Assembly: GCF_001677475.2 (NCBI RefSeq)
Contig: NZ_CP015229.1
Source: Escherichia coli
GTDB lineage: Bacteria > Pseudomonadota > Gammaproteobacteria > Enterobacterales > Enterobacteriaceae
Direction: 5' to 3' (one strand)
DNA length: 64,000 nucleotides
Shown: positions 3,310-27,176 of the stretch, one piece after another
How the letters are laid out: every line of letters starts with the position of its first letter
Position numbering within the stretch: the first letter of the stretch is position 1
Notes under the pieces: model-generated
Database searches by the model: none
The model's input: the letters and a program-made list of their open reading frames with translations, nothing else
What the model was told of the DNA's origin: nothing
Made by a program: the position numbers and the translations under genes

Positions 3310-5607
3310 ATGACGAATCGTATCTCTCGCCTCAAAACTGCACTGTTTGCCAATACCCGTGAAATCTCGCTGGAGCGGGCGCTGCTTTATACCGCCAGCC
3401 ATAAGCAAACCGAAGGCGAACCGGTGATTATTCGTCGGGCAAAAGCCACGGCGTATATCCTTGAACATGTTGAAATTTCGATTCGTGATGAAGAACTGAT
3501 TGCTGGTAACCGCACCGTAAAACCTCGCGCCGGGATTATGTCGCCGGAAATGGATCCTTACTGGTTGCTGAAAGAGCTGGAGCAATTCCCGACGCGACCG
3601 CAGGATCGCTTTGCTATCAGTGAAGAAGATAAACGTATCTACCGCGAAGAGTTGTTCCCGTACTGGGAAAAACGTTCGATGAAAGATTTCATCAACGGGC
3701 AGATGACGGATGAAGTAAAAGCCGCAACCAGCACGCAGATTTTCAGCATCAACCAGACGGATAAAGGCCAGGGGCACATTATTATTGATTACCCACGCCT
3801 GTTGAATCACGGGCTGGGGGAGCTGGTGGCACAGATGCAGCAACATTGTCAGCAACAGCCGGAGAATCACTTTTATCAGGCCGCGCTGTTACTGCTGGAA
3901 GCTTCACAAAAACACATTTTGCGTTACGCCGAACTGGCAGAAACGATGGCGGCAAACTGCACCGATGCCCAGCGTCGCGACGAATTGCTGACTATTGCGG
4001 AGATCTCCCGCCATAACGCGCAACATAAGCCGCAGACGTTCTGGCAGGCGTGCCAGTTATTCTGGTACATGAACATCATTCTGCAATACGAATCCAACGC
4101 CAGTTCGCTGTCGTTAGGGCGCTTCGACCAGTATATGTTGCCGTTCTATCAGACATCATTAACCCAGGGCGAAGACCCGGCGTTCCTGAAAGAACTGCTC
4201 GAATCTTTATGGGTGAAGTGCAACGACATCGTGCTGTTACGCTCCACCAGCAGCGCGCGCTATTTCGCAGGTTTCCCGACCGGCTATACCGCGCTGCTCG
4301 GCGGTTTAACGGAAAACGGACGTAGTGCGGTGAACGTGCTTTCGTTCCTCTGCCTCGACGCCTATCAAAGCGTGCAATTACCGCAACCGAACCTGGGCGT
4401 GCGCACTAACGCCTTGATCGACACGCCGTTCCTGATGAAAACCGCAGAAACCATTCGCCTCGGCACCGGTATTCCGCAAATCTTTAACGATGAAGTGGTG
4501 GTGCCAGCGTTCCTCAACCGTGGCGTTTCGCTGGAAGATGCGCGCGACTATTCAGTAGTGGGCTGTGTGGAATTATCTATTCCCGGCAGAACCTACGGCT
4601 TGCATGACATCGCGATGTTTAACCTGCTGAAAGTGATGGAAATCTGCCTGCATGAAAATGAAGGCAATGCTGCGCTGACTTATGAAGGTTTACTGGAGCA
4701 GATCCGCGCCAAGATCAGCCACTACATCACCCTGATGGTTGAGGGCAGCAATATTTGCGATATCGGTCACCGTGACTGGGCACCTGTACCGCTGCTCTCA
4801 TCGTTTATCAGCGATTGTCTGGAAAAAGGCCGCGATATTACCGATGGCGGTGCGCGTTATAACTTCTCCGGCGTACAGGGGATCGGTATCGCCAACCTGA
4901 GCGATTCTCTCCATGCGTTGAAAGGTATGGTTTTTGAGCAACAGCGTTTAAGTTTTGACGAATTGCTGTCGGTATTAAAAGCCAACTTTGCAACGCCAGA
5001 AGGCGAAAAAGTCCGCGCTCGCTTAATTAACCGCTTTGAGAAATACGGTAACGATATCGACGAGGTGGATAACATTAGCGCCGAACTGTTGCGCCACTAC
5101 TGCAAAGAAGTGGAAAAATACCAGAACCCGCGCGGCGGCTACTTCACGCCGGGATCGTATACCGTTTCTGCTCACGTCCCGTTGGGATCGGTGGTTGGCG
5201 CGACGCCAGACGGTCGTTTTGCCGGGGAACAACTGGCAGACGGCGGCTTGTCACCTATGCTGGGTCAGGACGCACAAGGGCCAACGGCGGTACTGAAGTC
5301 AGTCAGTAAGCTCGATAATACGCTGCTGTCTAACGGTACGTTGCTGAACGTGAAATTCACTCCGGCGACCCTGGAAGGTGAAGCGGGATTACGCAAACTG
5401 GCCGACTTCTTACGGGCGTTTACCCAGCTTAAGTTGCAGCATATTCAGTTTAACGTGGTGAACGCCGACACGTTGCGGGAAGCGCAACAGCGCCCACAAG
5501 ATTATGCCGGGCTGGTGGTGCGCGTTGCCGGATACAGCGCCTTCTTTGTCGAATTGTCGAAGGAGATCCAGGATGACATCATCCGCCGGACAGCGCATCA
5601 GCTGTAA
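3310..5607 (+). CDS. pflD: Glycyl radical enzyme (annotated formate acetyltransferase 2)
   Basis: 765-aa ORF; C-terminal glycyl radical motif RVAGYSAFF; catalytic-loop-like GCVE. Confidence 0.93.
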   Translation: MTNRISRLKTALFANTREISLERALLYTASHKQTEGEPVIIRRAKATAYILEHVEISIRDEELIAGNRTVKPRAGIMSPEMDPYWLLKELEQFPTRPQDRFAISEEDKRIYREELFPYWEKRSMKDFINGQMTDEVKAATSTQIFSINQTDKGQGHIIIDYPRLLNHGLGELVAQMQQHCQQQPENHFYQAALLLLEASQKHILRYAELAETMAANCTDAQRRDELLTIAEISRHNAQHKPQTFWQACQLFWYMNIILQYESNASSLSLGRFDQYMLPFYQTSLTQGEDPAFLKELLESLWVKCNDIVLLRSTSSARYFAGFPTGYTALLGGLTENGRSAVNVLSFLCLDAYQSVQLPQPNLGVRTNALIDTPFLMKTAETIRLGTGIPQIFNDEVVVPAFLNRGVSLEDARDYSVVGCVELSIPGRTYGLHDIAMFNLLKVMEICLHENEGNAALTYEGLLEQIRAKISHYITLMVEGSNICDIGHRDWAPVPLLSSFISDCLEKGRDITDGGARYNFSGVQGIGIANLSDSLHALKGMVFEQQRLSFDELLSVLKANFATPEGEKVRARLINRFEKYGNDIDEVDNISAELLRHYCKEVEKYQNPRGGYFTPGSYTVSAHVPLGSVVGATPDGRFAGEQLADGGLSPMLGQDAQGPTAVLKSVSKLDNTLLSNGTLLNVKFTPATLEGEAGLRKLADFLRAFTQLKLQHIQFNVVNADTLREAQQRPQDYAGLVVRVAGYSAFFVELSKEIQDDIIRRTAHQL

Positions 5608-6451
5608 CGTTGTGGAAACGCGCCGCAATGATGTGGCGCGCATTTTCAACATTCAGCGTTATTCACTGAATGACGGCGAGGGCATTCGTACGGTGGTCTT
5701 TTTTAAAGGCTGTCCGCATCTTTGCCCATGGTGTGCTAATCCGGAGTCGATCTCCGGCAAAATCCAGACGGTACGCAGAGAGGCGAAATGTCTGCACTGT
5801 GCGAAATGTTTGCGTGATGCGGATGAATGCCCGTCCGGGGCGTTTGAACGGATTGGTCGCGATATCAGCCTTGACGCGCTGGAGCGGGAAGTGATGAAAG
5901 ATGACATTTTCTTTCGCACGTCCGGCGGCGGCGTCACGCTTTCTGGCGGCGAAGTGTTAATGCAGGCGGAGTTTGCGACCCGTTTTTTACAGCGACTTCG
6001 GCTGTGGGGGGTGTCATGCGCCATTGAAACTGCCGGAGACGCGCCAACCAGCAAGTTGTTACCGCTGGCGAAATTGTGCGATGAAGTGTTGTTCGATTTA
6101 AAAATTATGGACGTAACTCAGGCGCGGGATGTGGTGAAGATGAACCTGCCACGCGTGCTGGAGAATTTGCGTTTGCTGGTGAGTGAGGGTGTCAACGTGA
6201 TCCCGCGTTTACCGCTGATCCCTGGTTTCACGCTCAGCCGGGAGAATATGCAGCAGGCGCTGGACGTGCTGATCCCGCTGAATATCAGGCAGATCCATCT
6301 GTTACCGTTTCATCAGTACGGCGAACCAAAATACCGCCTGCTGGGGAAAACATGGTCGATGAAAGAGGTTGCTGCGCCGTCGTCAGCCGATGTGGCAACG
6401 ATGCGCGAAATGGCAGAACGGGCCGGATTTCAGGTTACCGTGGGAGGTTAA
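5573..6451 (+). CDS. pflC: Glycyl radical enzyme activating enzyme (radical SAM)
   Basis: ORF-track 5504..6451 trimmed to internal ATG at 5573 (MTSSAGQRISCNVVE..), giving 292 aa; CPHLCPWC radical-SAM triad; overlaps pflD 3' end by 35 bp. Confidence 0.9.
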   Translation: MTSSAGQRISCNVVETRRNDVARIFNIQRYSLNDGEGIRTVVFFKGCPHLCPWCANPESISGKIQTVRREAKCLHCAKCLRDADECPSGAFERIGRDISLDALEREVMKDDIFFRTSGGGVTLSGGEVLMQAEFATRFLQRLRLWGVSCAIETAGDAPTSKLLPLAKLCDEVLFDLKIMDVTQARDVVKMNLPRVLENLRLLVSEGVNVIPRLPLIPGFTLSRENMQQALDVLIPLNIRQIHLLPFHQYGEPKYRLLGKTWSMKEVAAPSSADVATMREMAERAGFQVTVGG

Positions 6452-6452
6452 A

Positions 6453-6794
6453 ATGGCATATCTGGTGGCAGTAACCGCCTGCGTAAGCGGCGTGGCGCAT
6501 ACTTATATGGCGGCGGAACGGCTGGAAAAGTTGTGCCAGTTAGAGAAGTGGGGCGTCAGCATTGAAACTCAGGGCGCGCTGGGAACGGAGAATCGTTTAG
6601 CGGACGAGGATATCCGCCGGGCGGATGTTGCGCTGCTGATTACGGATATCGAGCTTGCCGGTGCCGAGCGATTTGAACATTGCCGCTACGTGCAATGCAG
6701 CATCTACGCTTTCCTGCGTGAGCCGCAGCGGGTGATGAGCGCGGTACGCAAAGTGCTTTCTGCGCCGCAGCAAACCCATCTTATTCTGGAGTAG
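6453..6794 (+). CDS. frwD: PTS fructose-like IIB component 2
   Basis: ORF-track 6369..6794 trimmed to ATG 6453 (MAYLVAVTACVSGVAHTYMAAE..), 113 aa; paralog of frwB. Confidence 0.9.
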   Translation: MAYLVAVTACVSGVAHTYMAAERLEKLCQLEKWGVSIETQGALGTENRLADEDIRRADVALLITDIELAGAERFEHCRYVQCSIYAFLREPQRVMSAVRKVLSAPQQTHLILE

Positions 6795-7632
6795 TCGGTT
6801 TTTCTGTCAGTTGGCTGTGGTACTGCCGACGATATTCCGACGGTGAGCGTTCGGTATTTTTACGAAACAGACGGCAGAAGTAGTTGCTGTCGACAAAGCC
6901 GCAGGCGTGCGCCACTTCTTTTACCTTCAGGTCATAGCCTTTCAATAACGTCTTAGCGTGCTCCAGTCGCGTGTGATTCAGGTATTCGTTAAAACCAATG
7001 GCCCCCGTTTTTTGAAACAGGTGCGAGAGGTAATTTGGCGAAATATAGAATGCCTGTGCGACAGATTCGCGGGTAAGCGCGGAGGCATAGCGTTCGTCGA
7101 TATAATCACGAATAGCTTCGAACAGTGCCTGGCTGCGTGAGGCGGTCTGGATTTGGCTGCCAAGCAAATCGCGGCAGTGGCTAAGCAGGCTGGCGACGAT
7201 AAGCCTTGCCGTTTGCTGCTCTTGCGACTGCATTTGCATTTCATTGAGCGTTTGTAGCAGAAAAGAACCAATGCGCGGGCCGCGTCGGGCGACGTGTTGC
7301 TTCGCCAGATTTTGATATTGTTTGCCATCCCATTGCACGACGCTGAAGCCGAGTTGCTGTTTGCCAAACAGCACGCTAAAGGTAGTGGCGGGGGCTTGCC
7401 ATTGTGGAAAATTCCAGCCACCAGCGGGAACGTACAGCACATCGCCGGGAACTAACGTTGCTCCAGCGCCGGTATCAACAAACTCACCTTCCAGCACAAT
7501 TTCCAGCCGTGGAAAATCGACCTGATACGCGAGATCGGGGACCGGACCGTTGCTGCTGGCAAAGTAAATCTGGCGCAGGGACAGCGGGCCGTTGATCAGG
7601 CGGGAGAGCAGATAGCTGACGTCGTGATACAT
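6781..7632 (-). CDS. yijO: AraC-family transcriptional regulator
   Basis: 283-aa ORF with C-terminal AraC-type HTH region; convergent with frwD, 14-bp overlap. Confidence 0.9.
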   Translation of the reverse strand: MYHDVSYLLSRLINGPLSLRQIYFASSNGPVPDLAYQVDFPRLEIVLEGEFVDTGAGATLVPGDVLYVPAGGWNFPQWQAPATTFSVLFGKQQLGFSVVQWDGKQYQNLAKQHVARRGPRIGSFLLQTLNEMQMQSQEQQTARLIVASLLSHCRDLLGSQIQTASRSQALFEAIRDYIDERYASALTRESVAQAFYISPNYLSHLFQKTGAIGFNEYLNHTRLEHAKTLLKGYDLKVKEVAHACGFVDSNYFCRLFRKNTERSPSEYRRQYHSQLTEKPTTPE

Positions 7633-17288: not shown

Positions 17289-17311
17289 GAACATTTATAT
17301 GTACAAATTTG

Positions 17312-17340
17312 AGCCTGGCTTATCGCCGGGCTTTTTTATG
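17312..17340 (+). terminator. Intrinsic terminator of argCBH
   Basis: Hairpin gcctggcttatcgccgggc followed by TTTTTT. Confidence 0.6.
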
Positions 17341-17342
17341 GC

Positions 17343-17459
17343 AAAAAAAAGCGGATCCTGGAGATCCGCAAAAGTTCACGTTGGCTTTAGTTATTCGAGT
17401 TGAGAAACTCTCGAAACGGGCAGTGACTTCAAGGGTTAAAAGAGGTGCCGCTCCGTTTC
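17343..17459 (-). ncRNA. oxyS: OxyS small regulatory RNA (about 109 nt plus U-tail)
   Basis: Minus strand reads GAAACGGAGCGGCACCTCTTTTAACCCTTGAAGTCACTGCCCGTTTCGAG..GCGGATCTCCAGGATCCGC then a U-run; divergent from oxyR. Confidence 0.93.
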
Positions 17460-17554
17460 TGTGAGCAATTATCAGTCAGAATGCTTGATAGGGATAATCG
17501 TTCGTTGCTATGCTACCTATCGCCGCGAACTATCGTGGCAATGGAGGATGGATA
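17460..17554. promoter_or_regulatory. oxyS/oxyR divergent promoter region with OxyR binding site
   Basis: Position between the oxyS 5' end and the oxyR start; exact operator not delimited. Confidence 0.55.
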
Positions 17555-18472
17555 ATGAATATTCGTGATCTTGAGTACCTGGTGGCATTGGCCGAACACC
17601 GCCATTTTCGGCGTGCGGCAGATTCCTGCCACGTTAGCCAGCCGACGCTTAGCGGCCAAATTCGTAAGCTGGAAGATGAGCTGGGCGTGATGTTGCTGGA
17701 GCGGACCAGCCGTAAAGTGTTGTTCACCCAGGCGGGAATGCTGCTGGTGGATCAGGCGCGTACCGTGCTGCGTGAGGTGAAAGTCCTTAAAGAGATGGCA
17801 AGCCAGCAGGGCGAGACGATGTCCGGACCGCTGCATATTGGTTTGATTCCTACGGTTGGACCGTACCTGCTACCGCATATTATCCCGATGCTGCACCAGA
17901 CATTTCCAAAGCTGGAAATGTATCTGCATGAAGCACAGACCCACCAGTTACTGGCGCAACTGGACAGCGGCAAACTCGATTGCGTGATCCTCGCGCTGGT
18001 GAAAGAGAGCGAAGCATTCATTGAAGTGCCGTTGTTTGATGAGCCAATGTTGCTGGCTATCTATGAAGATCACCCGTGGGCGAACCGCGAATGCGTACCG
18101 ATGGCCGATCTGGCAGGGGAAAAACTGCTGATGCTGGAAGATGGTCACTGTTTGCGCGATCAGGCAATGGGTTTCTGTTTTGAAGCCGGGGCGGATGAAG
18201 ATACACACTTCCGCGCGACCAGCCTGGAGACGCTGCGCAACATGGTGGCGGCAGGTAGCGGGATCACTTTACTGCCAGCGCTGGCTGTGCCGCCGGAGCG
18301 CAAACGCGATGGGGTTGTTTATCTGCCGTGCATTAAGCCGGAACCACGCCGCACTATTGGCCTGGTTTATCGTCCTGGCTCACCGCTGCGCAGCCGCTAT
18401 GAGCAGCTGGCAGAGGCCATCCGCGCAAGAATGGATGGCCATTTCGATAAAGTGTTAAAACAGGCGGTTTAA
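17555..18472 (+). CDS. oxyR: LysR-family peroxide-sensing regulator OxyR
   Basis: ORF-track 17510..18472 trimmed to Met at 17555 ([23 protein letters not shown]..), 305 aa. Confidence 0.95.
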
Positions 18473-19855
18473 ACCGTTTAACGCAGCTACCCGATAGGCT
18501 TCCGCCATGGTCGGGTAGTTAAAGGTGGTGTTGACGAAGTACTCAATAGTGTTGCCGCCACCTTTCTGTTCCATAATCGCCTGACCGATATGAATAATTT
18601 CGGCAGCGCGCTCGCCAAAGCAGTGAATACCCAGAATCTCTTTTGTTTCCCGATGGAACAAAATTTTCAGCGTGCCCACGTTCATGCCGACGATTTGTGC
18701 ACGTGCCAGATGTTTAAACTGGGCGCGGCCCACTTCATATGGCACTTTCATCGCGGTCAGCTGCTGTTCGGTTTTGCCCACAGAGCTGATTTCCGGGATG
18801 GTGTAAATGCCGGTAGGGATATCTTCAATCAGATGCGCGGTGGCTTCGCCTTTTACCAGCGCCTGCGCGGCAATGCGCCCCTGGTCATAGGCCGCTGATG
18901 CCAGGCTCGGATAACCAATCACGTCGCCCACCGCGTAAACGTGCGGCTGTGCGGTCTGATACATGCTGTTGACCTTCAGCTGTCCGCGACTGTCAGTTTC
19001 CAGCCCAATGTTCTGTAACGCCAGCGAATCGGTATTACCGGTACGACCGTTGGCATAGAGCAGGCAGTCAGCTTTCAGTTTTTTACCCGACTTCAGATGC
19101 ATGATCACACCGTCGTCACAGCCTTCGATCTTCTCGTACTCTTCGTTGTGACGAATCACTACGCCACTGTTCCAGAAGTGATAGGAGAGAGAATCTGACA
19201 TCTCTTGATCGAGAAATGCCAGCAGGCGATCGCGGGTGTTGATCAGATCCACTTTTACATCCATACCGCGGAAGATCGACGCATATTCACAGCCGATCAC
19301 TCCAGCACCATAGATAAGTACATGGCGCGGTTCGTGGTGCATGCTGAGAATTGAGTCGCTGTCGTAAATGCGTGGATGGGTGAAATCAACATCTGTTGGA
19401 TGATATGGACGAGAGCCGCAGGCAATAACAAATTTTTCAGCGGTTAGCGTTTCAACGCTGCCGTCCGGGCAATCCAGCGCCAACGTATGCTCGTCAACAA
19501 AGCGAGCGTTCCCCTGCAATATTTCACAGTGATTACGTTCGTAAAATCCCTGACGCATGCGCGTTTGTTGATTAATCACGTTATCGGCATGGTTAAGGAT
19601 ATCGGCAAAAGAAGAGCGGAGCAGTCGGGAATGGTCGCTGTATAGTGGGTTTTGATTGAATTCTATAATGCGGCTGACGGCGTGACGGAGAGCTTTCGAC
19701 GGGATGGTGCCCCAGTGGGTGCAACCGCCGCCAACATTTTGATAACGCTCGATAACTGCGACGCGCGCACCTTGCTTAACCAGGCCCATTGCAGCGCCTT
19801 CGCCGCCGGGGCCGGAACCTATTACTATGGCATCGTAATCGTAGGAATGTGGCAT
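18455..19855 (-). CDS. sthA: Soluble pyridine nucleotide transhydrogenase
   Basis: 466-aa [26 protein letters not shown].. (FAD/NAD Rossmann GxGxxG); convergent 18-bp overlap with oxyR. Confidence 0.95.
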
Positions 19856-20184: not shown

Positions 20185-21351
20185 ATGATCGAACACTATA
20201 TTCGAGGGTTTGAGGAAGAACTGCGTGAGATCCGCCATCAGATCCACGAAAACCCGGAGCTGGGATTACAAGAATTTAAAACCAGTGCTTTGGTGGCGGA
20301 AAAGCTGCGTCAGTGGGGCTATGAAGTAGAGCAAGGACTGGCGACGACGGGGATAGTGGCCACGTTAAAAGTGGGCGACGGAGAGAAAAGTATTGGCCTG
20401 CGGGCGGATATGGATGCGCTGCCAATTTATGAAAATAGTGGCAAGCCCTGGGCCAGTAAACATCCTGGTTTAATGCACGCCTGCGGGCATGACGGGCATA
20501 CCACCATACTGCTGGGGGCCGCGCGTTATTTTGCCGAAACCCGCCGTTTTAACGGCACGTTACGTCTTATCTTCCAGCCTGCGGAAGAGATGATTAACGG
20601 CGGTGAGATCATGGTTAAAGAGGGGCTTTTTGATCATTTCCCCTGCGATGTCATTTTCGGCATGCATAACATGCCCGGTCTGCCGGTGGGTAAGTTTTAT
20701 TTCCAGCCAGGGGAACTGATGGCGTCAATGGATCAGTTCCATATTACAGTTCGTGGTTGTGGCGGACACGGTGCGATCCCGCACAAAGCCATCGATCCGG
20801 TGCTGGTTGCCGCACATATCACCACCGCATTACAAAGCATTGTGTCGCGCAATGTCGATCCGCTGGAAGCGGCGGTAATTACCGTCGGCAGCATTGTTGC
20901 GGGTGAGGCGGCTAACGTCATTCCTGACAGTGCTGAGATGAAAATCAGCGTCCGCTCTCTTAGCCGCGATACCCGACAACTTCTTCTGACCCGTATTCCT
21001 GCTCTGGCACAAACCCAGGCTGCCAGCTTTGGTGCTACGGCTGAGGTTACGCATGTTAACGGTACACCGGTATTAGTGAATGACGAGGAGATGGCGCGCT
21101 TCGCCTGGCAGGTGGCGTGTAAAACGTTTGGTGAAGATCGGGCCGAGTTTGGCATCAAGCCCCTGATGGGCAGTGAGGATTTCTCTTTCATGCTGGAAGC
21201 CCAGCCGAAAGGCGCTTTTTTGCTGTTCGGTAATGGCGATGTCGGGGAAGGTTCCTGCATGGTGCATAACCCGGGTTACGACTTCAACGATGCAAGTCTG
21301 GTCCCGGCATGCAGCTACTGGGGCGCACTGGTAGAAGCTTGGCTGCAATAA
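20185..21351 (+). CDS. M20D-family metal-dependent amidohydrolase (hippurate hydrolase / N-acyl-amino-acid deacylase-like)
   Basis: 388-aa ORF; HACGHDGH metal-binding signature; GGAGG-like RBS (aaaggaa) upstream; no signal peptide. Confidence 0.8.
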   Translation: MIEHYIRGFEEELREIRHQIHENPELGLQEFKTSALVAEKLRQWGYEVEQGLATTGIVATLKVGDGEKSIGLRADMDALPIYENSGKPWASKHPGLMHACGHDGHTTILLGAARYFAETRRFNGTLRLIFQPAEEMINGGEIMVKEGLFDHFPCDVIFGMHNMPGLPVGKFYFQPGELMASMDQFHITVRGCGGHGAIPHKAIDPVLVAAHITTALQSIVSRNVDPLEAAVITVGSIVAGEAANVIPDSAEMKISVRSLSRDTRQLLLTRIPALAQTQAASFGATAEVTHVNGTPVLVNDEEMARFAWQVACKTFGEDRAEFGIKPLMGSEDFSFMLEAQPKGAFLLFGNGDVGEGSCMVHNPGYDFNDASLVPACSYWGALVEAWLQ

Positions 21352-21393: not shown

Positions 21394-22710
21394 ATGACGG
21401 CGATCGTAAATGAAACCGTGAGTGTGAAGAAAAAGCCCAGCGGTAAGCGGGTGATTTTTGCTTCGGCGTTTGGCAATGCGCTCGAATTTTTTGATTTTGG
21501 CGTTTACAACTTTTTTGTGGTCTATATCAGTACGCTTTTCTTCCCACCCAGCGCTGATCACAATGTCGCGCTGTTACTGGCATTTGCAACATTTGGCGTG
21601 AGTTTTTTTATGCGCCCGCTTGGTGGAATTATCGTCGGGGCCTGGGCCGATCGCTTCGGACGCAAACCCGCGATGGTGTTCACCATTGCCCTGATGAGCC
21701 TCGGTACACTGATGATCGGCATCGCACCGACGTATGAAACGGCGGGCTATTGGGGAACCGCGACGCTGGTGCTGGCGCGTCTAATTCAGGGCGTTGCGGC
21801 AGGAGGCGAAGTCGGTGCCTCAATGTCTTTGTTGGTTGAATCAGCTCCGGCAAATCGTCGCGGCTTTTACAGCAGTTGGTCACTGGCGACTCAAGGCCTG
21901 GCAACAACCTTTGGTGGTGTTGTCGCTTTAGGTTTAAGCGCATGGCTGCCCTTTGCGACAGGTTCAGAAACCGTAATGGCTGAATGGGGCTGGCGTGTGC
22001 CATTTTTTATTGGCGTGTTATTAGCACCTATCGGTTGCTGGTTGCGTCTGAGCCTGGAAAATGACGTACCTGAGCTAGTGCGCAATAAAAAAGCTGCTAC
22101 CAGCGAAAGCGCGTTCTCTCTGCTCCTGCAACATAAGGCGACTATCGTTAACGGCGTTTTACTCGCTATTGGTAGCACGGTCGCAACCTATATCTCCCTC
22201 TTTTATTACGGCACCTGGGCGGCGAAGTATCTGGCGATGCCTCAACATTATTCTCATGCAGCGATGTTACTGGCGGGCGTTATTACGTTTGTGGGTGCGC
22301 TGCTTGTGGGGATGTTGTGCGATTCGGTCGGGCGTAAAAAGCTGATTTTAATCTCCCGTGTGATGGTGCTGATCTGTAGCTGGCCGTCATTCTGGCTGTT
22401 GGTGAATTACCCAAGCCCTGGCATGTTGCTGACGGTGGTTTTCGTGATGGTCAGCTTTACCACGCTTGGCGGTGTGCCGGTAATGTTGCTGATCTCTGAA
22501 CTGTTGCCGAAACGGATTCGGGCATTGGGTTTTGCGCTGGTTTATAGCATTGGTGTGGCAATCTTTGGCGGTTTTGCTCAATATTTCGCTACGCAATCCA
22601 TCGTGTTGCTGGATAGTTTGACAGCTCCGGCGTGGTATTTGGGTGGAGGCACGTTGCTGTCGATGCTGGCGTTGTTGTACGTAAAAGAACCGGCCAAAGA
22701 ATTGCAGTAA
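21394..22710 (+). CDS. Major facilitator superfamily permease, metabolite:H+ symporter (MHS) type
   Basis: 438-aa hydrophobic ORF; [13 protein letters not shown] (GxxxDRxGRK) motif; 42 bp after the amidohydrolase, same strand. Confidence 0.8.
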
Positions 22711-25331: not shown

Positions 25332-27176
25332 ATGATTAAAAAAGCTTCGCTGCTGACGGCGTGTTCTGTCACAGCCTTTTCCGCTTGGGCACAGGATACC
25401 AGCCCGGATACTCTCGTTGTTACTGCTAACCGTTTTGAACAGCCGCGCAGCACTGTGCTTGCACCAACCACCGTTGTGACGCGTCAGGATATCGACCGCT
25501 GGCAGTCGACCTCGGTCAATGATGTGCTGCGCCGTCTCCCTGGTGTGGATATCACCCAAAACGGCGGTTCAGGTCAGCTCTCATCTATTTTTATTCGCGG
25601 TACAAATGCCAGTCATGTGTTGGTGTTAATTGATGGCGTCCGCCTGAATCTGGCGGGGGTGAGTGGTTCTGCTGACCTTAGTCAGTTCCCTATTGCGCTT
25701 GTCCAGCGTGTTGAATATATCCGTGGGCCGCGCTCCGCTGTTTATGGTTCAGATGCAATAGGCGGGGTCGTGAATATCATCACGACGCGCGATCACCCCG
25801 GAACGGAAATTTCAGCAGGGTGGGGAAGCAATAGCTATCAGAACTATGATGTCTCTACACAGCAACAACTGGGGGATAAGACACGGGTAACGCTGTTGGG
25901 CGATTATGCCCATACTCATGGTTATGATGTTGTCGCCTATGGTAATACCGGAACGCAAGCGCAGCCAGATAACGATGGTTTTTTAAGTAAAACGCTTTAT
26001 GGCGCGCTGGAGCATAATTTTACTGATGTCTGGAGCGGCTTTGTGCGCGGCTATGGCTATGATAATCGTACTAATTATGACGCATATTATTCTCCCGGCT
26101 CGCCGCTGGTCGATACACGTAAACTCTATAGCCAAAGTTGGGATGCCGGACTGCGCTATAACGGCGAACTGATTAAATCACAACTCATTACCAGCTACAG
26201 CCATAGCAAAGATTACAACTACGATCCGCATTATGGTCGTTATGATTCGTCCGCGACGCTCGATGAGATGAAACAGTACACCGTCCAGTGGGCAAACAAT
26301 GTCATCGTTGGTCACGGTAGTATTGGTGCGGGTGTCGACTGGCAGAAACAGACTACGACGCCGGGTACAGGTTATGTTGAGGATGGATATGATCAACGTA
26401 ATACCGGCATCTATCTGACCGGGCTGCAACAAGTCGGCGATTTTACCTTTGAAGGCGCAGCACGCAGCGACGATAACTCACAGTTTGGTCGTCATGGAAC
26501 CTGGCAAACCAGCGTCGGTTGGGAATTCATCGAAGGTTATCGGTTTATCGCTTCTTATGGTACGTCGTACAAGGCACCTAATCTTGGGCAACTCTACGGC
26601 TTCTACGGTAATCCGGATCTGAACCCTGAGAAAAGCAAACAGTGGGAAGGGGCGTTTGAAGGCTTAACCGCTGGAGTGAACTGGCGTATTTCCGGATACC
26701 GTAACGATGTTAGTGACTTGATCGATTACGATGATCACACCCTCAAATACTACAATGAAGGGAAAGCGCGAATTAAGGGCGTCGAGGCGACCGCCAATTT
26801 TGATACCGGACCGCTGACGCATACGGTGAGTTATGATTATGTCGATGCGCGTAACGCGATTACCGACACGCCGTTGCTACGTCGCGCTAAACAGCAGGTG
26901 AAATATCAGCTCGACTGGCAACTGTATGACTTCGACTGGGGTATTACTTATCAGTATTTAGGCACTCGCTATGATAAGGATTACTCATCTTATCCTTATC
27001 AAACCGTTAAAATGGGCGGTGTGAGCTTGTGGGATCTTGCGGTTGCGTATCCGGTCACCTCTCACCTGACAGTTCGTGGTAAAATAGCCAACCTGTTCGA
27101 CAAAGATTATGAGACAGTCTATGGCTACCAAACTGCAGGACGGGAATACACCTTGTCTGGCAGCTACACCTTCTGA
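25332..27176 (+). CDS. btuB: TonB-dependent outer-membrane vitamin B12 receptor
   Basis: ORF-track 25287..27176 trimmed to Met at 25332 ([35 protein letters not shown]..), 614 aa; TonB box; C-terminal aromatic residue. Confidence 0.95.

Follow-up and report, generated by a model that had tools for sequence, protein, structure and literature searches.

Tail-to-tail coding overlaps of oxyR/sthA and frwD/yijO in Escherichia coli and the ends of their convergent transcripts

Convergent genes in Escherichia coli commonly produce transcripts whose 3′ ends overlap, as recorded for 276 of 370 convergent operons (75%), and several described systems bear on how such junctions arise and what they do. 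Convergent coding overlaps have been explained by extension of a 3′ end to the next stop codon (Fukuda et al. 2003), and, in the account given by a paper that cites Kingsford et al. 2007, random 3′ extension accounts for their lengths. Transcripts that are terminated by Rho are typically trimmed by 3′-5′ exonucleases, and antisense regions form the largest class of Rho regions (51.5%; PMC7815308). Hundreds of convergent gene pairs in E. coli lack canonical terminators, and for these a model has been put forward in which collisions between RNA polymerases bring about termination (10.1101/2022.10.23.513370). Finally, ExcludonFinder (Sanmartin et al., NAR 2025, PMC12288877) defines excludons as neighbouring genes whose opposite-strand transcripts overlap in half or more of 58 transcriptomes, and both gene pairs discussed here, oxyR-sthA and frwD-yijO, are among its 165 convergent excludons.

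These two pairs lie in the window analysed here, a 64,000-nt stretch of the E. coli genome. The best explanation of the whole, to which we assign a probability of about 0.7, is that both are ordinary, old coding overlaps whose transcripts end inside the neighbouring gene by the action of Rho.

Geometry, conservation and origin of the overlaps

The oxyR coding sequence (17555..18472, plus strand) specifies a 305-aa LysR-family peroxide sensor, and sthA (18455..19855, minus strand) a 466-aa soluble pyridine nucleotide transhydrogenase; the open reading frames, the OxyR translation and the RefSeq annotations of the nearest strain and of K-12 are concordant (oxyR at 4158490..4159407 and sthA at 4159390..4160790 in K-12; window position = K-12 position - 4140935). 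The longest oxyR reading frame opens with an ATG at 17510, a start that was dropped, the true one being at 17555. As claimed in the sequence-only reading, the two genes share 18 bp at their tails (18455..18472). The oxyR stop codon TAA occupies 18470-18472, that of sthA lies on the complement of 18455-18457, and the two reading frames share one codon register, so that TTA AAA CAG GCG GTT TAA on the plus strand (L K Q A V and stop) is antisense to TTA AAC CGC CTG TTT TAA on the minus strand (L N R L F and stop). The second overlap in that claim, of 14 bp (6781..6794, identical in K-12), is equally real and joins frwD (6453..6794, plus strand; a 113-aa PTS IIB-like protein with Pfam PTS_IIB at residues 5-95) to yijO (6781..7632, minus strand; a 283-aa AraC-family regulator with Pfam HTH_18 at residues 192-270). 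Here the codon registers differ; frwD terminates with TAG at 6792-6794, and the stop codon of yijO lies on the complement of 6781-6783. The RefSeq annotation of the nearest strain agrees, as does that of K-12, where frwD ends at 4147479 and yijO runs from 4147466. Pfam, PDB and RefSeq data identify all four genes as genuine protein-coding genes on opposite strands, and in both pairs the stop codons fall within the shared nucleotides. The Pfam domains of OxyR (HTH_1 and LysR_substrate, the latter ending at residue 293) and SthA (Pyr_redox_2/Pyr_redox_dim) stop short of the overlap, and the OxyR structures PDB 1I69 and 1I6A span residues 87-305. Both overlaps have been in the reference annotation for decades and are already catalogued; they represent an ordinary, evolutionarily old arrangement.

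Among 5,426 complete E. coli genomes, the oxyR-sthA locus is found in 5,425 and the frwD-yijO locus in 5,415 (at ≥80% coverage). The exact 18-bp overlap of oxyR and sthA is retained in 76 of 78 Enterobacteriaceae loci and in 7 of 9 other Enterobacterales; the arrangement is altered in Dickeya and Pectobacterium, and Dickeya provides a natural un-overlapped control. In four 50-kb stretches of the K-12 annotation, which served as the base-rate sample, 33 convergent junctions between coding sequences were counted; 2 of them overlap, in each case by 4 bp, and no overlap reaches 14 bp. Coding overlaps of 14 to 18 bp are uncommon, yet not rare genome-wide.

The persistence of the exact 18 bp in 76 of 78 loci, together with the constraint on the codon for SthA Leu-461, goes beyond chance. 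This codon is TTA or CTA, the sole Leu codons with a stop as their complement, in 77 of 79 sequences; the adjacent Leu-458 uses six codons. On the protein side, the SthA homologue PDB 9n4y aligns through its final residue (...GLNRLF), and the homology of OxyR to its Pseudomonas aeruginosa counterpart ends at residue 291. Judged from such sequence comparisons, SthA, with its conserved C-terminus, is the constrained partner, and the variable tail of OxyR runs into it. The lineage-specific 14-residue tail of OxyR would read the complement of the sthA end up to the stop opposite Leu-461, and selection on both proteins would then have frozen the 18 shared bp. The strict retention of the overlap across the order could also reflect selection for coupling, besides dual coding alone.

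Transcript ends and embedded stem-loops

The sequence-only reading held that the overlaps leave no space for terminators and that transcription from each gene must run into the coding region of its partner. A consensus scan revealed no canonical intrinsic terminator near either junction, in agreement with the first of these statements, and for oxyR/sthA the second is borne out by published data, including the 3′-end mapping that had been proposed as a check. Term-seq places the 3′ end of the sthA mRNA at 18410 on the minus strand (K-12 4159345). This position is 45 nt beyond the stop codon of sthA and 63 nt inside the oxyR coding sequence; average reads are 78,428 and 54,987 for two of the three conditions, and the end is classed as primary for sthA and antisense to oxyR (Adams et al. 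2021, PMC7815308, Supplementary file 1). Regions of Rho-dependent, bicyclomycin-sensitive termination, mapped coarsely in 800-nt windows, lie inside each partner gene. For the oxyR transcript (plus strand, antisense to sthA), the peak is at 18574 (K-12 4159509), ∼100 nt past the oxyR stop, with a score of 5.10 and p=3.2e-16; for the sthA transcript (minus strand, antisense to oxyR), it is at 18080 (K-12 4159015), ∼375 nt past the sthA stop, with a score of 5.81 and p=5.9e-31 (PMC7815308, Supplementary file 2). In DirectRNA-seq data from the same study, bicyclomycin raised the ratio of downstream to upstream coverage from ∼0.17-0.19 to ∼0.9-1.1 on both strands. The C/G ratio is 1.2-1.5 at +61 to +240 past the oxyR stop and up to 2.23 in a C-rich, G-poor tract at +261 to +338 past the sthA stop. 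With bicyclomycin-sensitive readthrough and C-rich, G-poor untranslated RNA, the oxyR and sthA transcripts both have the properties of Rho-dependent termination.

The sthA end lies 5 nt past the stem of a hairpin, designated here hairpin S (GGCCAUCC-N10-GGAUGGCC; 18415..18440, minus strand), which is an inverted repeat with an 8-bp stem and a ΔG of -15.1 kcal/mol that falls within oxyR codons 287-296. The sequence that follows it, UCUGCCAG, is not a U-tract, and hairpin S does not qualify as an intrinsic terminator. Comparison of its sequences shows 97.2% of alignment cells paired and double compensatory changes at 3 pairs in 11 cells, a level matched by none of 500 shuffles, in a control that is inflated by sequence relatedness. 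On these compensatory substitutions, hairpin S counts as a conserved structured RNA element. The oxyR synonymous sites in its arms have an entropy of 0.33 bits versus 1.03 bits (p=0.0009). Assignment of the hairpin to a strand from its G·U asymmetry (8 versus 0 in favour of the sthA sense) was rejected, and Term-seq was used for this purpose instead, because the asymmetry is contradicted by folding, in which the oxyR sense is at least as stable as the sthA sense (slightly more so), and also by Pseudocitrobacter, which retains the hairpin in the oxyR sense only. Hairpin S may act also, or instead, in the oxyR mRNA or as a DNA palindrome. A scan with Rfam covariance models gave no match at the hairpins and recovered only OxyS (17350-17459).

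On the other side of the junction, the RNAalifold consensus predicts a long conserved stem-loop at 18515..18569 (plus strand), 43-97 nt past the oxyR stop and within sthA codons 430-447. In this structure, which was optimised on one sense, 99.4% of alignment cells are paired in the oxyR sense versus 77.9% in the sthA sense; independent alifold runs for each sense gave -19.85 (oxyR) versus -4.58 (sthA), and the oxyR sense is the more stable one in 76 of 79 species and in all 8 outgroups that have the overlap. Synonymous sites in Thr and Asn codons of sthA are frozen here, a signal of which codon bias could be a partial cause; double compensatory changes are absent, and the shuffle control is not exceeded. 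Because Term-seq called no discrete oxyR 3′ end (Adams et al. 2021; TERMITe has no entries either), the role of this stem-loop on the oxyR side is a putative one. A smaller hairpin just past the oxyR stop (18485..18520 or, more narrowly, 18487-18518, plus strand; core CTACCCGA/TCGGGTAG) was rejected as a conserved element: covariation is absent, in the sthA sense one of its pairs is broken in 22 sequences, and its strand asymmetry is slight. Overall, stem-loops at the 3′ ends of these mRNAs are probably under nucleotide-level selection that is visible at synonymous sites of the partner gene.

The chain of events proposed for oxyR/sthA runs as follows. With no space between the genes, the RNA polymerase from each would proceed into the partner gene; ribosome release at the stop codon would leave an untranslated, C-rich antisense RNA as a substrate for Rho, which would end oxyR transcripts ∼100 nt and sthA transcripts ∼300-400 nt past their stops. 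Exonucleases working in the 3′-to-5′ direction would then trim the RNA back to a stable stem-loop, in sthA transcripts to the GGCCAUCC/GGAUGGCC hairpin inside oxyR, at the end seen by Term-seq, and in oxyR transcripts probably to the long stem-loop at 18515-18569 inside sthA.

The frwD/yijO junction is arranged in the same way; its locus is poorly expressed and shows no detectable RNA structure. Its flanking RNA folds no better than shuffles and contains no terminator-like site, the supplements of Adams et al. 2021 hold no Term-seq or Rho entries for it, and the transcript overlap of this pair is known from the ExcludonFinder listing.

Overlap and the question of regulation

By the transcript-overlap definition, both pairs are excludons in published data. 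One rival explanation is that the overlap is a selected device: by polymerase collision, by RNase III cleavage of a duplex of at least 63 bp, or by both, transcribing one gene would reduce expression of its partner and so couple the abundance of OxyR to the NADPH-consuming transhydrogenase. Such an explanation is consistent with the presence of both pairs in the ExcludonFinder core set, with the higher synteny and lower single-cell co-expression of excludon pairs as a class (PMC12288877), with the conservation of the oxyR/sthA arrangement across Enterobacterales, with the mapped ends, which guarantee complementary oxyR and sthA RNA, and with the precedent of mscL-arfA, where an overlap of 3′ coding sequence and 3′ UTR regulates via RNase III (PMC10070815). 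We nevertheless regard it as unlikely. In the K-12 sample, 9 of 10 junctions with gaps of 11 bp or less are listed by ExcludonFinder, and none of 23 at 33 bp or more, which means that intergenic distance alone predicts the listing; the label is nearly automatic at zero or negative distance and is therefore not to be taken as evidence of regulation. Three-quarters of convergent operons overlap regardless. The p19 capture of double-stranded RNA is uninformative for convergent pairs, for which such validation was not feasible (PMC12288877). Dual coding with an invariant SthA C-terminus fully accounts for the conservation, and the arrangement has changed in Dickeya and Pectobacterium. The oxyR and sthA mRNAs coexist in LB at similar bulk levels (∼250 reads per 800 nt per strand in published coverage), which argues against strong exclusion at the level of the population. 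Transcription of oxyR is autoregulated, not induced by stress (peroxide), so that a switch would have no obvious input signal. A literature search for bicyclomycin, RNase III or mutual-repression studies specific to oxyR-sthA found none. Antisense interference between the redox regulator and the redox enzyme, as suggested by the sequence-only reading, is thus far only a possibility, for which both the published classification as excludons and the single-cell statistics at the population level leave room. At least 63 nt of the two mRNAs are complementary, which would allow some pairing into duplexes or some collision of polymerases; the effect would most likely be a minor by-product, not a designed redox switch, and we infer that it lacks regulatory importance. 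A variant of the same idea, which we consider quite improbable, is a reciprocal 3′-end module, with the stem-loop of each mRNA deliberately encoded in the partner coding sequence and with OxyR abundance coupled to SthA by polymerase traffic or by the duplex, at least 63 nt long. If it were true, changes in sthA transcription with carbon source or growth phase would tune the peroxide sensor, or the reverse, giving redox cross-talk without any trans factor.

Another explanation invokes a bidirectional terminator driven by collisions, where polymerases coming from both sides would pause at a shared hairpin, and collisions both head-on and from trailing polymerases would end the two transcripts without any need for Rho. 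Hairpin S is palindromic, stable in both senses and adjacent to the sharp and abundant sthA end, as such a model would have it, but both strands regain readthrough under bicyclomycin, no sharp 3′ end is on record for oxyR, and oxyR and sthA are modestly expressed, while the model requires dense polymerase traffic. Moreover, hairpin S is located 30 nt upstream of the oxyR stop codon, so termination there in the oxyR sense would yield a non-stop mRNA. Judged by the definition of Ju et al. 2019, oxyR/sthA does not belong to the bidirectional terminators, both of its strands being sensitive to bicyclomycin and a 3′ end being called on the sthA strand only; we regard this mechanism as very unlikely. 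As for an artefact of annotation or sequencing, with a misplaced stop or a frameshift that fakes the overlap, all that speaks for it is that annotated overlaps are, in general, sometimes erroneous. A check for frameshifts or shifted stops, which could have removed the overlap, left it standing: the stops are unambiguous and identical in ∼5,400 E. coli genomes, the overlap is kept in 76 of 78 loci and in 7 of 9 other species, residue 305 is the last one of the crystallised OxyR construct, and the SthA homologue shares the same last six residues. An artefact is effectively refuted.

The overlap and its conservation are demonstrated, as are the 3′ end of sthA and the Rho dependence of both strands; new elements are the 18-bp conservation counts, the identification of SthA as the constrained partner, and the 3′ stem-loops embedded in the partner coding sequence that freeze synonymous sites. 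The arrangement is not special to oxyR/sthA, since overlapping 3′ transcription is the norm among convergent operons. The pair is a clean natural case of a triple constraint, with two proteins and an RNA 3′-end structure on one stretch of DNA, where stem-loops at mRNA 3′ ends visibly keep synonymous positions of the adjacent gene from changing, accompanied in one case by an Ile/Val replacement in OxyR. The added value is modest: it is cautionary with respect to excludon status, and methodological. A true coupling of OxyR and SthA would link oxidative-stress sensing to NADPH/NADH balancing; no evidence here points that way.

Comparison with described systems

Among ExcludonFinder excludons, both pairs are listed by name and satisfy the definition; the original concept, however, was one of mutually exclusive expression, and the transcript overlap of oxyR-sthA and frwD-yijO is a geometric necessity. 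The mscL-arfA pair of E. coli (Morra et al. 2023, PMC10070815), whose overlap is conserved in Gammaproteobacteria, resembles oxyR-sthA in its tail-to-tail orientation, its overlap of 3′ coding sequence and 3′ UTR, and its mutually antisense transcripts. It differs in that antisense regulation and RNase III processing were demonstrated experimentally there, whereas oxyR-sthA is known from its geometry and transcript ends.

Overlapping bidirectional terminators (Ju et al. 2019; Wang et al., 10.1101/2022.10.23.513370) have in common with oxyR/sthA the convergent orientation, the lack of a canonical intrinsic terminator and a hairpin near the 3′ ends. They are Rho-independent with sharp ends on both strands; oxyR/sthA is Rho-dependent with a sharp end for sthA only. 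The locus resembles more closely the system of Rho termination with exonuclease-trimmed ends protected by stem-loops (Dar & Sorek 2018; Adams et al. 2021, PMC7815308), with which it shares bicyclomycin-sensitive readthrough on both strands, the C-rich, G-poor tract downstream, and a mature sthA end a few nt past a hairpin without a U-tract. In contrast to that system, the oxyR/sthA hairpins are embedded in the partner coding sequence, where they limit variation at synonymous sites and, in one instance, at an Ile/Val residue; trimming at this locus is the presumed step.

With respect to its origin, oxyR/sthA fits the model of Kingsford et al. 2007 and Fukuda et al. 2003, in that the non-homologous tail of OxyR enters the antisense strand of sthA up to the first stop complementary to a Leu codon, in the codon register in which antisense stops are rare. 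It departs from that model in its length, 18 bp instead of the common 4-bp class, and in being fixed across a whole bacterial order.

Coding overlaps in sequence and across Enterobacterales

The gene for the peroxide sensor, oxyR (plus strand, 17555-18472), and that for the soluble transhydrogenase, sthA (minus strand, 18455-19855), share 18 bp at 18455-18472, and a second convergent pair, frwD (plus strand, 6453-6794) and yijO (minus strand, 6781-7632), overlaps by 14 bp, as the sequence-only reading had proposed. Sequence and ORF reading place the oxyR stop (TAA, plus strand) at 18470-18472, the sthA stop (minus strand) at the complement of 18455-18457, the frwD stop (TAG) at 6792-6794, and the yijO stop at the complement of 6781-6783. 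Both overlaps have identical relative coordinates in RefSeq for the nearest strain and K-12 MG1655 (the window-to-K-12 offset in the oxyR-sthA region is 4,140,935), and an annotation artefact as their source was excluded. The true oxyR start at 17555 (305 aa) matches the annotated and crystallised protein; the longest ORF (ATG 17510, 320 aa) includes a 5' overextension, 17510-17554, that stems from mechanical ORF calling. The window is chromosomal E. coli DNA; a 2.6-kb oxyR-sthA query matched 5425 of 5426 complete E. coli genomes at ≥95% identity, with the best match in strain PapM-32-1 (99.5%). PapM-32-1 and the window strain also carry, between sthA and fabR, an M20 aminoacylase gene (20185-21351, plus strand) and a citrate-proton symporter pseudogene with an internal stop (~21394-22710, plus strand); fabR directly follows sthA in K-12, making this a strain-variable insertion beside the locus.

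The two reading frames are in the same codon register, with TTA AAA CAG GCG GTT TAA of oxyR (L K Q A V stop) opposite TTA AAC CGC CTG TTT TAA of sthA (L N R L F stop), so that each stop is complementary to a TTA codon for leucine in the partner gene. A perfect 12-bp palindrome with a PmeI site, CGGTTTAAACCG at 18465-18476, is centred on the oxyR stop; it requires GGT for Gly-460 and is missing from most other strains and species, and is therefore probably incidental.

An SthA scan of the genome collection yielded 80 Enterobacteriaceae loci, 78 of them informative for the overlap, which is exactly 18 bp in 76 and 27 bp in Enterobacter soli and Pluralibacter gergoviae, where Leu-461 has changed to CTG and oxyR runs on to the next complement-stop. 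The Leu-461 codon is otherwise TTA (73) or CTA (4), the only leucine codons with a stop as complement; six different codons are used for Leu-458, three codons off and outside the overlap. The overlap is also exactly 18 bp in Pantoea, Erwinia, Tatumella, Hafnia, Edwardsiella, Serratia, and Chimaeribacter. Pectobacterium (locus L091, 3865-3907) has a 43-bp overlap, with an oxyR-like ORF running into sthA and CTT for Leu-461. Dickeya (locus L090, 3908-4023) is a natural un-overlapped variant, with a 116-bp AT-rich spacer of repeated TTGATTTAATCAA-like units between sthA and oxyR; its OxyR nevertheless still ends in ...SKQSA, which suggests that the shared segment may have been duplicated. The sthA stop is TGA in both of these genera and never TGA where the 18-bp overlap is kept.

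In an alignment with SthA, the solved homologue 9n4y matches through to the final residue and has the same ...GLNRLF end; homology between the OxyR proteins of E. coli and P. aeruginosa ends at ...LAEAIRA, residue 291 of 305. Pfam domains stop short of the overlap in all four proteins. In the simplest history that these sequences suggest, the variable OxyR tail would have grown into the antisense strand of an sthA end that could not move. The fixation of the overlap across the order Enterobacterales and the identification of SthA as the constrained partner are minor refinements. Outside Enterobacteriaceae, oxyR diverges from a gene for a peroxiredoxin-glutaredoxin hybrid (AhpC-TSA and Glutaredoxin domains), seen in Pantoea, Erwinia, Tatumella, Dickeya, Hafnia, Edwardsiella, Serratia, and Chimaeribacter (comparison loci L087-L090 and L092-L095; ~4930-5830 in each). 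E. coli has oxyS/argH in its place: the upstream partner of oxyR was swapped and the downstream partner, sthA, was kept.

Transcript ends and Rho-dependent termination

Transcription of each gene into its partner, also part of the sequence-only reading, is borne out for oxyR/sthA by published mapping. The Term-seq data of Adams et al. (eLife 2021, PMC7815308) contain a strong end, “primary sthA / antisense oxyR,” at K-12 4159345 (window 18410, inside oxyR), with mean reads of 78,428 and 54,987 in two of the three conditions, a level similar to that of OxyS. In the printed sequence, this end lies 5 nt past the hairpin GGCCAUCC-N10-GGAUGGCC, which has a folding energy of -15.1 kcal/mol and no U-tract. 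The bicyclomycin table in the same work lists Rho regions inside both partners: the sthA antisense strand has one at K-12 4159509 (window 18574, plus strand; Rho score 5.10, p=3e-16), and the oxyR antisense strand has one at K-12 4159015 (window 18080, minus strand; Rho score 5.81, p=6e-31); Rho inhibition raised the downstream/upstream coverage from ~0.17-0.19 to ~0.9-1.1 on both strands. Thus, both transcripts enter the partner gene and both end Rho-dependently, and the abundant sthA 3' end adjoins a conserved hairpin within the oxyR gene. Those Term-seq data give no discrete 3' end for oxyR, and frwD and yijO have no entries in the 3'-end or Rho tables. According to the same authors, more Rho regions are antisense (51.5%) than of any other class, and 3'-5' exonucleases typically shorten RNAs that end by Rho termination.

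Consensus scans detected no intrinsic terminator near the oxyR/sthA or frwD/yijO junction. Downstream of both the oxyR and the sthA stop, the transcribed strand turns C-rich and G-poor (C/G up to 1.5 at +61 to +240 past the oxyR stop and 2.23 at +261 to +338 past the sthA stop), which is consistent with Rho loading and with the termination zones mapped. The 110-nt segment past the oxyR stop has a folding energy of -36.9 kcal/mol (z = -3.3; equalled by 0 of 200 shuffles); around the frwD/yijO junction, the flanking sequence has no folding advantage over shuffles. One kilobase from the terminator-less oxyR/sthA junction lies a canonical intrinsic-terminator convergent junction, argH/oxyS, where the hairpins of argH (plus strand) and oxyS (minus strand; OxyS sRNA at 17350-17459, Rfam 139.5 bits) stand back to back within ~60 bp (17311-17369).

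Stem-loops within the partner genes

The hairpin at the sthA mRNA 3' end (18415-18440) has near-invariant stem arms and a freely varying 10-nt loop in a 79-species alignment, with 97.2% of cells paired and compensatory double changes at three pairs (11 cells; matched by 0 of 500 shuffles). In nine species, an A-U pair became G-C through a synonymous Asp change coupled to an Ile-to-Val replacement in OxyR. Mean entropy is 0.33 bits at the oxyR synonymous sites in the arms, versus 1.03 bits at the other synonymous sites of the last 40 oxyR codons (p=0.0009). A strand call from single-sided changes, based on G·U compatibility in the sthA sense only, was contradicted by independent folding, in which the oxyR-sense hairpin proved no less stable than the sthA-sense one and is the only one that Pseudocitrobacter retains; the strand assignment therefore rests on the Term-seq end. 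Directly past that end, a second, highly conserved potential stem (CAGCUGC-UCAUA-GCGGCUG, 18391-18409, minus strand) appears in the folds of most outgroups, within a very conserved OxyR segment.

On the other side of the junction, RNAalifold predicts a long stem-loop at 18515-18569, which ends 5 nt short of the Rho-region peak. Double compensatory changes are absent from it, and it does not exceed the shuffle control. However, 99.4% of cells are paired in the oxyR sense versus 77.9% in the sthA sense, independent consensus folds reach -19.85 versus -4.58 kcal/mol, and the oxyR sense folds more stably in 76 of 79 species and all 8 overlapping outgroups. The sthA synonymous sites are frozen where a transition would break an oxyR-sense pair (0.13 versus 0.66 bits, p=0.0017): entropy is zero at two paired Thr ACC codons (unpaired Thr codons, 1.38 and 1.45) and 0.17 at paired Asn codons (one unpaired, 0.94). 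The stem-loop is a probable, if unproven, oxyR 3' structure. A smaller hairpin, 18485-18520, was rejected as a conserved element, its support being limited to protein conservation. Rfam yields a match to OxyS alone and to none of these elements. The imprint of 3'-end stem-loops on the synonymous sites of a neighbour is a minor refinement of a known kind of phenomenon.

Frequency of such overlaps and alternative readings

Among 33 convergent CDS junctions in four 50-kb K-12 annotation stretches (200 kb), two overlap, each by a minimal 4 bp (fepE/fepC and purR/punR), none by 14 bp or more, and 8 further junctions have gaps of 0-11 bp. Few convergent junctions thus carry coding overlaps as long as 14-18 bp, but the phenomenon itself is well known; in the model of Kingsford et al., the general length distribution of convergent overlaps is explained by random 3' extension to the next stop. 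Two same-strand overlaps annotated in the window, pflD/pflC (35 bp, ~5445-5479) and btuB/murI (56 bp, ~27121-27176), are longer than either convergent one.

Both pairs are among the 165 convergent MG1655 “excludons” (opposite-strand neighbours with overlapping transcripts) of ExcludonFinder (NAR 2025, PMC12288877). Its sole criterion is an overlap of RNA-seq coverage in 50% or more of 58 transcriptomes, without a pair-specific test, and its dsRNA (p19) validation was not feasible for convergent pairs. In the 200-kb sample (L083-L086), its Table 1 includes 9 of 10 junctions with gaps of ≤11 bp, the sole exception being fepE/fepC despite its 4-bp overlap, and 0 of 23 with gaps of ≥33 bp. List membership thus tracks intergenic distance, and the label is largely a geometric consequence for such short-gap pairs.

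Because at least 63 nt of the mature sthA mRNA are complementary to oxyR mRNA, duplex formation or polymerase collision can occur. A regulatory switch of the excludon type, for which mscL-arfA sets a precedent of such overlaps regulating via RNase III, appears unlikely, given that dual coding and RNA-end structure account for the conservation and that oxyR transcription is autoregulated, not stress-induced. Bulk levels of the two RNAs, similar in published data (~250 reads per 800 nt on each strand), also speak against it. A collision-driven bidirectional terminator is disfavoured, since that model is Rho-independent and calls for a sharp end on each strand and for dense traffic of polymerases. 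Under the preferred reading, dual coding with RNA-end structure, ribosome release at each stop would expose C-rich antisense RNA to Rho, exonucleases would trim the RNAs back to the stem-loops, and selection for mRNA 3'-end stability may maintain these. Of the sequence-only reading, the geometry and the transcription hold, and the antisense interference that it envisaged, like any regulatory effect of the overlap, is speculative. Conway et al. found complementary 3' ends in 276 of 370 convergent operons, with a mean overlap of 286 nt; transcript-level overlap is the rule among E. coli convergent operons, the oxyR/sthA layout is typical of them, which further argues against a switch, and the overlap as originally posed is already known and ordinary.
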